From a virus (lineage: Duplodnaviria > Heunggongvirae > Uroviricota > Caudoviricetes), in the IMG/VR virus record IMGVR_UViG_2617270979_000005, positions 1 through 17,402 of that record: 17,402 nt of DNA, one strand, 5' to 3'. This document shows, piece by piece, positions 5,507-7,523 of the stretch. Below the pieces are notes generated by a model. It was given only the letters and a program-made list of their open reading frames with translations, did no database searches and had not been told where the DNA came from. The stretch's first letter is position 1; every line of letters starts with the position of its first letter. The translations under genes were made by a program, and so were the position numbers.

Positions 5507-6385
5507 TCAGACTGCAAGATCCAAGGGAAGATCAGAAATATCCTTTAATCTTTTACCATTAACCATCACGGAAAGCATGTCAGCTGCATCGCTGAGCCCC
5601 AGTATTTCAACTGCTGATATAAGTTCATAAAGCGCAAAATGATACACGCAATCTATATCACCAGTACCAAGAGCAATAGACGCCAGACGACTTGGAGTAG
5701 GCTCAGCAGTAACAACCATTACATGAGGGAGATTTCCCTTACGGTTGCGAATAAGATTTAATGCCTCAGAACGAGCATTCTGGGCCCGGTCGCTTCTTAT
5801 TGTCCATTTGCAGGAAATACTTGCGTGTAATATTGGTTTCCCACCATTCGAACTCCTGAGAGCTGACATGCGGGTAACAGAATCATCCACCAGTAATTCA
5901 GGACTGTTGATAACTTGATCACATTCAGGTTCTCTTTCAACAATAATATCTGGTGAAATCGTATAATCACTCCCCAGTGCAGCAGCTAGCTGAGGATTAC
6001 TTTTTGCAGCACTATCCAATGCTATAAGATGGGCATATTGTTCATATTTAGCTATCTCTAATCTGTTTCTACCAGAAACCTGATGTACATTCCATTTTCC
6101 AGGGCGTAAGTGGCTGAGTTTAAAAAAGGTTTTTTCTATAAACTCTGCGCAGATACTCTCAAACTGATTACCAGATGTTTGCCCTGCAACACGTTCACCA
6201 ATCGTTTCAGCCTGCAAGAAGCGAGCAATTTCTCTTGCTATAGCTTTACTGTTTTTGTTACTGCTATCTGCGTTACTAACAACTCCGGCAGTATTAATTG
6301 TGAGCGTATTCAGTAACAATTGGGCATGAAACTCCTTTCTGGCTTCAGCAAAACCAACTATGCTGTCAACCAAATCTCCATTCAT
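5507..6385 (-). CDS. Candidate Type II restriction endonuclease (PD…SxK…E arrangement) partnered with the upstream C5-methyltransferase
   Basis: 292-aa ORF from ATG 6385 (AAGGA RBS 9 nt upstream), 13 nt after the methyltransferase stop; contains 'SPDIIVERE', then 'ISCKW' about 50 residues later, then E 14 residues on, reminiscent of the Cfr10I/NgoMIV/Bse634I catalytic layout (from memory). AT-rich. The nuclease call is an inference. Confidence 0.5.
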   Translation of the reverse strand: MNGDLVDSIVGFAEARKEFHAQLLLNTLTINTAGVVSNADSSNKNSKAIAREIARFLQAETIGERVAGQTSGNQFESICAEFIEKTFFKLSHLRPGKWNVHQVSGRNRLEIAKYEQYAHLIALDSAAKSNPQLAAALGSDYTISPDIIVEREPECDQVINSPELLVDDSVTRMSALRSSNGGKPILHASISCKWTIRSDRAQNARSEALNLIRNRKGNLPHVMVVTAEPTPSRLASIALGTGDIDCVYHFALYELISAVEILGLSDAADMLSVMVNGKRLKDISDLPLDLAV

Positions 6386-6398
6386 TTCTGGATTTCCT

Positions 6399-7523
6399 TC
6401 AGGCTGCTTGACTATTCTTACTGATGTTATTCTTATACCGTCCCTGCAAAACTCCATACACATATTGTGCGATTTTTGCCGCAAATAGCGGTGGAACAGC
6501 ATTCCCGATCTGCTTTGCAATCTCAGTTTTTGAACCGGTAAAAATGAAATTATCAGGAAAAGACATTAATCTCGCTGCCTCACGATGAGTTATTGGCCGA
6601 TCCTCTTCCGGATGTAAATATCGCCCTTTCTCCGGTTTGAAAAACTCAGTACGAATCGTTACTGAAGGTCTGTCCCACCACAGACGTCCAAACAAATCGG
6701 TCCCTCCAGATTTCTTTTTTAGCCAGCACGCCGGGGTTATATCAGGTCTTTTTTTCTGTAAATCGAAACGGTTACCTCCTGGTGGAACCGCTTTATATCG
6801 CTCCAAAGAAACAGGTGTGGGATTACGCCCAAAATGTAAGTTCAGCGGAGGAAGTTCATTACGAATATCAGTTCCAACAGGAGCAGGTAAGTCACCAATT
6901 GCATCACGCGTACAGACCCATTCAGGCAAAGCGACATCCTTATCAGGGGAACGATGCGTTGGTGCTGGCGGGAACGCCGGAATACTATGCACATCGAAGA
7001 GTTCTCGTTTGATACCGATTGCTATCGTTCGTTTTCTTGTCTGAGGTACTCCATAGTCAGCAGTATTCAACACCATTGGATTAAGCAGAATAAAGCCCAT
7101 GGATTTCGCTCTAAACGTAATGTCCGCAAACTCATCGCTTATCAGCAATCCGGGGACATTTTCCATGACGAACATACAAGCCCTTGAACGCTCAATGACA
7201 TCCATATAAGGCTCCCACAATGCTCTTCGGTGATCACCATAACGATTCTTATTTAATAAACTGAATCCCTGACACGGGGGGCCACCTATGACCACATCAG
7301 CCTCAGGAACAGTATTGCTGGATGCCCACTCCTCAATATTTGCCTGAACTCCATGCAAACCAAAATTGGCATTGTAGGTATTTATAGCTGCAGCATTATT
7401 ATCAATAGCAAGGATACTTTCAAAGTAGTCAGACATCTCTCCATGAAGAAAACCATAAGATAATCCACCTGCCCCACAAAAGAGGTCTATCACTCTGAAT
7501 TTATTTAATTCTTTCATCCGCAT
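6399..7523 (-). CDS. DNA cytosine-5 methyltransferase
   Basis: 374-aa ORF, ATG at 7523 with GAGG RBS; canonical m5C motifs: I 'DLFCGAGG', IV 'GGPPCQGFS', VI 'ENV', VIII 'QTRKR', X 'GNAV'. Confidence 0.9.
   Translation of the reverse strand: MRMKELNKFRVIDLFCGAGGLSYGFLHGEMSDYFESILAIDNNAAAINTYNANFGLHGVQANIEEWASSNTVPEADVVIGGPPCQGFSLLNKNRYGDHRRALWEPYMDVIERSRACMFVMENVPGLLISDEFADITFRAKSMGFILLNPMVLNTADYGVPQTRKRTIAIGIKRELFDVHSIPAFPPAPTHRSPDKDVALPEWVCTRDAIGDLPAPVGTDIRNELPPLNLHFGRNPTPVSLERYKAVPPGGNRFDLQKKRPDITPACWLKKKSGGTDLFGRLWWDRPSVTIRTEFFKPEKGRYLHPEEDRPITHREAARLMSFPDNFIFTGSKTEIAKQIGNAVPPLFAAKIAQYVYGVLQGRYKNNISKNSQAA

Follow-up and report, generated by a model that had tools for sequence, protein, structure and literature searches.

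A putative NgoMIV-type restriction-modification system in the place of the hok toxin gene in a lambdoid prophage of Escherichia coli

The restriction endonuclease NgoMIV from Neisseria gonorrhoeae (R.NgoMIV; PDB: 1FIU and 4ABT), which cleaves G^CCGGC, is a tetrameric Type IIF enzyme (PMC3413111, Table 1). It belongs to the CCGG family of nucleases, whose active-site motif is PDX46-53KX13E (PMC3413111). An RSDR segment contacts the CCGG core in NgoMIV and SgrAI (PMC2532715, PMC3413111), and residue Q63 of NgoMIV hydrogen-bonds the outer cytosine (PMC3413111). The present study concerns two adjacent genes, a methyltransferase gene (M) and a nuclease gene (R), in a viral DNA stretch of 17,402 nucleotides (nt) that comprises positions 1 to 17,402 of the IMG/VR record IMGVR_UViG_2617270979_000005 (Caudoviricetes) and is referred to below as the window. 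From its sequence, and with a probability of roughly 0.85, we read the pair as a two-gene Type II restriction-modification (R-M) system that a lambdoid E. coli prophage carries in its nin region as a moron. A moron is an accessory gene unit that is expressed independently of the operons of the phage itself. The pair has one unusual feature: it occupies the usual place of a hok toxin gene, of which the promoter, leader and terminator have been kept.

Both genes are open reading frames (ORFs) on the minus strand, M at 6399..7523 and R at 5507..6385. An initial annotation of the window had placed them at these coordinates, and re-reading both ORFs from the sequence confirmed their positions, motifs and spacing. 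R (WP_001012717.1, 292 amino acids (aa)) affiliates with the NgoMIV family over its full length. It covers positions 1-275 of the 275 positions of the Pfam model PF09015 (6e-127, 423 bits), matches the NgoMIV crystal structures 1FIU/4ABT over residues 12-292 (1e-118) and the PADLOC model REase_II (8e-126), and shares 185 of 281 aligned residues (65.8%) with NgoMIV. Judged by these matches R is a full-length NgoMIV-family PD-(D/E)XK nuclease, and the concern raised in the initial annotation that the protein might lack a nuclease fold was not borne out.

The residues of R were compared in an alignment with NgoMIV and 83 family members from other genomes (85 family members). All 14 residues checked are identical between R and NgoMIV, and 13 of them are invariant across the 85 members, S36 being the variable one. 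The invariant positions include the catalytic set E70, P139-D140, S185-x-K187 and E201 (NgoMIV numbering), which corresponds to E76, P145-D146, S191-x-K193 and E207 in R. In the translation of R these residues are found in the segments SPDIIVERE and ISCKW and in a downstream E, with the spacing PD-X46-K-X13-E, which falls within the range of the family motif (PMC3413111); the D, S-x-K and E layout that had been likened to that of the CCGG-family enzymes is thus present. The RSDR segment (R191-S-D-R194 in NgoMIV, R197-S-D-R200 in R) is identical in the two proteins and invariant in the family alignment. The same applies to Q63, D34 and R227 (NgoMIV numbering), the latter two of which are reported to read the outer G:C pair (Deibert et al. 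2000).

The identity of RSDR and of the outer G:C contacts D34, Q63 and R227 with those of NgoMIV makes G^CCGGC a reasonably confident prediction for the specificity of R. Specificity had been regarded as unreadable from the sequence; for R, the NgoMIV-identical recognition residues make the target predictable to a good approximation. R is predicted to be an NgoMIV isoschizomer from E. coli and is expected to act as a Type IIF homotetramer on two sites. The other CCGG-family Type IIF enzymes, Cfr10I, Bse634I and SgrAI, share the fold, the S-x-K variant of PD-(D/E)XK and the RxDR recognition, in agreement with the initial annotation, but they are too distant from R to be picked up by sequence: NgoMIV was the sole phmmer match among the PDB sequences at E <= 1. 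Cfr10I, Bse634I and SgrAI lack direct contacts to the outer G:C pair, and therefore a degeneracy of the RCCGGY type is not expected for R.

M comprises 374 aa when read from the first ATG (7523) and 372 aa from the ATG at 7517, the start used in RefSeq (WP_001427299.1). It is a C5-cytosine (m5C) DNA methyltransferase by its end-to-end match with PF00145 (model positions 1-320 of 324, 4e-54) and its score against TIGR00675 (154.5 bits, cut-off 100.65). The canonical motif set claimed for it is complete, with FCGAGG (motif I), GPPCQGFS (IV), ENV (VI), QTRKR (VIII) and GNAVPP (X) all readable in the translation. M might have turned out to be a Dcm-type enzyme, a case considered in the initial annotation, but it is not an orthologue of the E. 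coli CCWGG methylase Dcm, with 40.7 bits against PRK10458 for which the cut-off is 710. Homologues across Enterobacterales are 70-80% identical to M, and the lineage of about 370 aa to which they belong is common in Enterobacterales and marine gammaproteobacteria (66-80% identity). Three routes to the specificity of M were tried and abandoned: the best 120 of 7,998 homologues bear generic names only, the PDB gives distant matches only (the putative methylase 3G7U, HaeIII, DNMT1 and HhaI), and NCBIfam assigns M at the superfamily level only. No characterised homologue of M was identified in the homologue and PDB searches. We infer a specificity of M for GCCGGC solely from the need to protect this site.

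The M stop and the R start are arranged as tga-aggaaatccagaa-ATG, and the 13-nt spacer (6386..6398, minus strand) contains an AGGA 9 nt upstream of the ATG that would serve as the ribosome-binding site of R. The distance of 13 nt between the two genes agrees with the initial annotation; the ribosome-binding site described there as good is only acceptable. PADLOC classifies the pair as MTase_II plus REase_II, and together with the PF09015/1FIU affiliation of R and its conserved active site this supports the proposed Type II R-M pair. The likeness to NgoMIV extends from the 66% identity of R over 281 residues to the length class, the PD-X46-K-X13-E arrangement with E70, the RSDR segment, the outer-pair contacts and the M-then-R gene order.

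The methyltransferase sets the window pair apart from other NgoMIV-type systems. NgoMIV-family nucleases are present in more than 500 species, and in about 70 of 80 loci from other species the upstream partner is a methylase of about 315 aa that is 22-30% (about 26%) identical to the M of the window. By sequence, M with its approximately 370 aa is not an M.NgoMIV homologue and belongs to a different m5C lineage. Further differences from NgoMIV are the absence of an adjacent Vsr gene, the separation of M and R by 13 nt rather than an overlap, and the location in the hokD locus of a lambdoid prophage. A Vsr gene is found downstream of the NgoMIV-family pair in a Halopseudomonas locus (L005).

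The same combination of M lineage and NgoMIV-family nuclease was found by genomic look-ups in a prophage of Klebsiella michiganensis as well as in Cronobacter dublinensis and Cedecea davisae, with identities of 72-80% for M and 79-84% for R. In these cassettes the M-R order and the short spacer (9-13 nt) are conserved. They differ from the cassette of the window in that nucleotide identity is about 72% and confined to the two coding regions, and none lies in a hok locus; the Cronobacter and Cedecea cassettes reside in the chromosome outside prophages. Across the cassettes the proportions of synonymous differences (pS) of both genes are 0.74-0.90, i.e. saturated, and those of nonsynonymous differences (pN) are 0.10-0.19. 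Since synonymous sites are saturated and pN is low, M and R have both been under purifying selection as a pair, and the pair is old.

In Yersinia kristensenii (L088, 5100-6092), Edwardsiella tarda (L089, 5088-6068) and Idiomarina (L095, 4105-5073), members of the M lineage are adjoined by an uncharacterised nuclease of about 325 aa whose C-terminal part is an HNH domain. In Salinicola (L094, 4147-5130) a 327-aa ORF downstream of the M homologue has no precomputed Pfam match and shows the same weak HNH-type NCBIfam matches as the three other nucleases. The M homologues of these loci are 66-77% identical to the M of the window. One nuclease family has switched to a different M lineage, which serves an unrelated HNH nuclease as well. 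Attempts to identify the HNH partner with Pfam, NCBIfam, PADLOC and the PDB returned a generic HNH domain only, resembling McrA or IscB; it is a candidate for a new restriction-enzyme family with the same target as R or an overlapping one. NgoMIV-paired and HNH-paired M homologues hardly differ in the target-determining region between motifs VIII and IX. On this ground these methylases probably share one specificity, covering GCCGGC.

The slot that holds the pair is occupied in related genomes by a hokD/sok locus. In the phages Tritos and Rac-SA53 and in E. coli MS20654, the slot has the order QueH - x - small ORF - DUF968, with hokD/sok as x. A query composed of the joined flanks of the insert detected 580 genomes with an empty-site allele (exemplified by locus L100), in which QueH, an intact mok/hokD, the same small ORF and DUF968 follow each other. 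Comparison with this allele delimits an acquired insert of approximately 2,092 nt (5438..7529, minus strand), composed of a short 5' stub, the M gene, the 13-nt spacer, the R gene and a 71-nt 3' untranslated region. The GC content of the insert is 42.7%, compared with 49.8% in the remaining window, 53.6% in the left flank and 49.5% in the right flank, and no other 2.1-kb stretch of the window is as low; the AT-rich block of the initial annotation is real. The low GC content, the empty-site allele and the only 72% nucleotide identity to the other enterobacterial cassettes together support the horizontal acquisition that had been proposed.

Upstream of the insert, the promoter scan found a hok-type sigma-70 promoter (7641..7669, minus strand; TTGGCG-17-TAGAAT) that is identical upstream of hokD in MS20654 and phage Tritos. 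It is followed by a remnant of the hok mRNA 5' leader (7530..7634, minus strand), which includes the transcription start (GGGUGCCUGAGGC, 5' hairpin), the Sok-complementary hairpin region and the mok Shine-Dalgarno sequence GAGG (7534..7531). Over 105 nt the leader is 95% identical to that of Rac-SA53 and Tritos, up to ..AATCTGAGGC (ending at 7530), after which the sequences diverge completely. The Rfam match 'sok' (RF01794; minus strand 7634..7454) is borderline, with 61 bits at a gathering score of 59, compared with 113 bits for an intact hokD allele. Similarity to the empty-site allele resumes at the terminator TAACCCGCTTCGCGGGTTTTGTTTTTT, from window position 5435 downwards. This intrinsic terminator (AACCCGCTTCGCGGGTT plus T-run, 5408..5434, minus strand; located at 5434..5418 by the terminator scan) stands directly 3' of hokD in MS20654 and in phage Tritos as well. 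Because Tritos has it after hokD despite a different downstream context, the terminator is native to hokD loci. The strong terminator with which the block had been said to end therefore exists, but it lies outside the block delimited in the initial annotation (5507-7523) and belongs to hokD, not to the acquired DNA.

Between leader and terminator the insert replaces about 290 nt of the hokD allele, namely the mok/hok ORFs, the segment that in R1-type loci carries the sok promoter, and an fbi-like 3' element. No Hok ORF was found anywhere in the window. A consensus scan for the sok promoter gave no hit in the window, which is uninformative because the intact hokD allele also scores none; the promoter has probably been lost, to judge from the deletion of the homologous segment. 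Of the constituents of a hok/sok locus, the window thus retains the promoter, the leader with the mok Shine-Dalgarno sequence and the terminator, and lacks the ORFs, the sok region and the fbi element. By this composition it is a remnant rather than a functional hok/sok locus. The R-M genes sit in the ready-made hokD transcription unit, as is typical of accessory genes that prophages express in the lysogenic state.

The junction also bears on the start of M. The first ATG (7523) lies 7 nt from the mok Shine-Dalgarno sequence, and the RefSeq start (7517) is preceded by a GGA from the short cassette-derived stub. A mini-ORF of 8 codons (7503-7527, minus strand; ATG at 7527; MDADERIK, then stop) overlaps both candidate starts in another frame and arose at the junction formed by the insertion. 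The variable slot is bordered on the right by the conserved motif GCC(A/T)GCCTGAACAAC.. (window ~5371-5395), which recurs just 3' of the cargo in the E. coli phage Rac-SA53 (L003, ~2250-2275) and the Klebsiella prophage (L085, ~6070-6100); it looks like a module-boundary sequence for recombination. Directly upstream of the hok promoter, a homologue of QueH (epoxyqueuosine reductase; 7702-8388, minus strand; PF02677, 1e-65) belongs to the early operon.

In another lambdoid prophage (L123, 1865-3983), a 97%-identical copy of the cassette has the hok terminator and no hok leader, and is flanked by DUF977 and an 82-aa ORF on one side and by DUF1367 on the other. The cassette has moved between nin-region contexts. 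Hok leaders were found at none of the Klebsiella, Cronobacter and Cedecea cassettes. For the leader alone, the count is about 3,600 of the 5,426 E. coli genomes, and a single genome can have up to 7 copies.

The 2.25-kb region of the pair is present at >=99% identity in 60 of 5,426 complete E. coli genomes, including O157:H7 isolates from cattle and humans in the United Kingdom (UK), and in about 27 IMG/VR prophage contigs. All 60 copies are located in a lambdoid prophage, with the replication genes on one side and the Q antiterminator gene on the other, and the carrier prophages use at least 2 different integration sites. In the window, Pfam assignments give the order repressor, YdaT, DnaT-like, P, DUF1627, DUF977, QueH, [M-R], small ORF, DUF968, RusA and Q. 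The whole window was not matched by any complete genome, the best match covering 83% at 97.5% identity; the prophage is a mosaic. RefSeq names the two products 'DNA cytosine methyltransferase' and 'NgoMIV family type II restriction endonuclease'. The pair is thus already recognised by routine annotation, and the system, though uncharacterised itself, is of a well-known kind. A complete Type II R-M system as cargo of a lambdoid prophage is also found in the PstI-like system of the Stx (Shiga toxin) phage of O104:H4, which has enzymes of other families with another specificity and sits elsewhere in the phage genome.

As a functional Type II system, the pair would operate as follows. M and R would be co-transcribed from the retained hok promoter, which is weak and constitutive (PMC3874152), with transcription ending at the hokD terminator; read-through from the early operon of the phage may add to it. 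M would be translated first, by way of the former mok ribosome-binding site or the cassette stub, and R from its own AGGA, 13 nt downstream. M would modify a cytosine within the GCCGGC sites of host and prophage DNA, and an R homotetramer would bind two unmethylated GCCGGC sites and cut G^CCGGC. The outcome would be the restriction of unmodified phage and plasmid DNA and a penalty for loss of the prophage.

Several observations weigh against an active GCCGGC-specific system. The pair has neither the short M.NgoMIV-type methylase that usually accompanies NgoMIV-family nucleases nor the Vsr gene that sometimes does, a difference of the system that leaves the family membership of R unaffected; with about 26% identity to the usual methylase, M derives no support for its specificity from M.NgoMIV homology. 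GCCGGC is not avoided beyond the E. coli background in the window or in the R-M prophage of strain 9000. Site avoidance was considered as evidence for specificity and rejected: the window has 0 GCCGGC sites compared with 4.7 +/- 2.1 in shuffled sequences, but the site is rare throughout E. coli (6 sites in 100 kb of chromosome, giving 1.04 expected in the window and P(0) = 0.35), and the strain 9000 prophage has 6 sites in 42.5 kb. In the literature we found no biochemical or methylome data on the enzyme; searches for the prophage system, for the accessions of its proteins, for methylation of GCCGGC in O157 and for 'Eco56I', an E. coli G^CCGGC enzyme, returned nothing. Lastly, the cassette shows signs of decay. 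Two otherwise diverged prophages (L139, ~2458-2470; L140, ~3249-3261) share a one-base deletion, the G of ATAGAAAAAACC, that frameshifts R near codon 85 (window ~6135) and leaves M intact. These are natural R-null alleles, and the nuclease is therefore dispensable and decays in some lineages. In one IMG/VR contig (L102, 2630-2637; window ~6757-6763) an A7 tract reads A6, with M apparently frameshifted and R intact, and if this change is real, R is not lethal there. On the strength of both cases, the pair of the window might be decayed or silent, with M acting as a solitary methylase (epigenetic or anti-restriction) and R inactive or unexpressed. The operon also has no dedicated controller protein, and a second methylase in the prophage, solitary and of the N6/N4 type, indicates that orphan methylases are tolerated. 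However, both ORFs are intact in the window with all catalytic residues conserved, R is under strong purifying selection across genera, and a broken R is seen in L139 and L140 only among the 26 prophage copies aligned over the cassette. Gap-free copies at 99.8-100% nucleotide identity necessarily have an intact R, and the L102 change, located in a homopolymer, may be an assembly error; it reflects either a sequencing error or a slippage-prone tract. A decayed or silent pair is therefore unlikely.

We likewise hold it improbable that the system is active on another target, with R cutting RCCGGY or another CCGG-core sequence and M having a broader specificity such as CCGG, RCCGGY or GCNNGC. M is unrelated to the usual NgoMIV partner and its lineage also serves the unrelated HNH nuclease, and small changes outside the RxDR core are known to shift flanking specificity in the CCGG family (PMC3413111). 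Yet the outer G:C readers D34, Q63 and R227 are all identical in an enzyme of 66% overall identity, Bse634I and Cfr10I, which have no outer G:C contacts, are far more distant (PMC3413111), and a broader M would be compatible with an R that cuts GCCGGC. A third explanation concerns regulation: the retained leader might still be functional and subject the expression of M and R to RNA control of the hok type, either by switching of the 5' hairpin or by repression through Sok RNAs supplied in trans by other hok/sok copies of the same genome. The leader of 105 nt is about 95% identical to that of intact loci, including the mok Shine-Dalgarno sequence and the long Sok-complementary hairpin, up to 7 leader copies occur in carrier genomes, and the start codon of M stands 7 nt from that Shine-Dalgarno sequence. 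A stable fold is predicted for the leader region (z = -3.7); when the chimeric leader is folded, its 5' hairpin is formed and a weak helix pairs part of the Shine-Dalgarno sequence, a structure that would suit regulated and unregulated translation alike. Against such control, the sok-promoter segment and part of the target of the Sok 5' tail have been replaced (going by the layout of R1-type loci), the fbi-like 3' element is lost, and the Rfam score has dropped from 113 to 61 bits. The L123 cassette, which has no hok leader, indicates in addition that the leader is not required. RNA control by the leader is doubtful on these grounds; if true, the locus would be a hybrid of an R-M system and a type I toxin-antitoxin system, in which one addiction module captured the regulatory RNA machinery of another. 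It is just as much a long shot that the wHTH-HNH nucleases of Yersinia, Edwardsiella and Idiomarina, given the M lineage they share with R, are restriction enzymes of a new fold with GCCGGC or an overlapping sequence as target. A two-gene Type II R-M moron with G^CCGGC as the predicted target thus remains our preferred reading.

Further features of the window lie apart from the pair. The solitary N6/N4 methyltransferase gene (1181-2230, minus strand; PF01555, 2e-44; PADLOC MTase_II, 4e-167) is situated downstream of the Q gene, with no adjoining nuclease gene. Between this late-region methylase and the end of the window are two prophage tRNA genes, tRNA-Arg(TCT) and tRNA-Met(CAT), at 879-955 and 1056-1131 (both minus strand). 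The antisense small RNA DicF is encoded at 14598-14649 (plus strand; Rfam RF00039, 76.7 bits), where related prophages carry ydfB, ydfC and dicB.

The practical consequences of these findings are modest, and the understanding of R-M systems is left unchanged by them. The replacement of hokD, the unusual M lineage shared with an HNH nuclease and the R-null alleles are small evolutionary curiosities rather than new biology. An R-M addiction module took over the slot of a hok toxin and reuses its promoter and terminator, an example of prophage accessory genes being exchanged as expression-ready units. To judge from the sequences, carriers of the pair, including the O157:H7 lineage from UK cattle and humans, are likely to have m5C in their GCCGGC sites and to restrict DNA that is unmodified. 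Such methylation and restriction in carrier strains would affect transformation, the host range of phages in phage therapy and the interpretation of methylomes.

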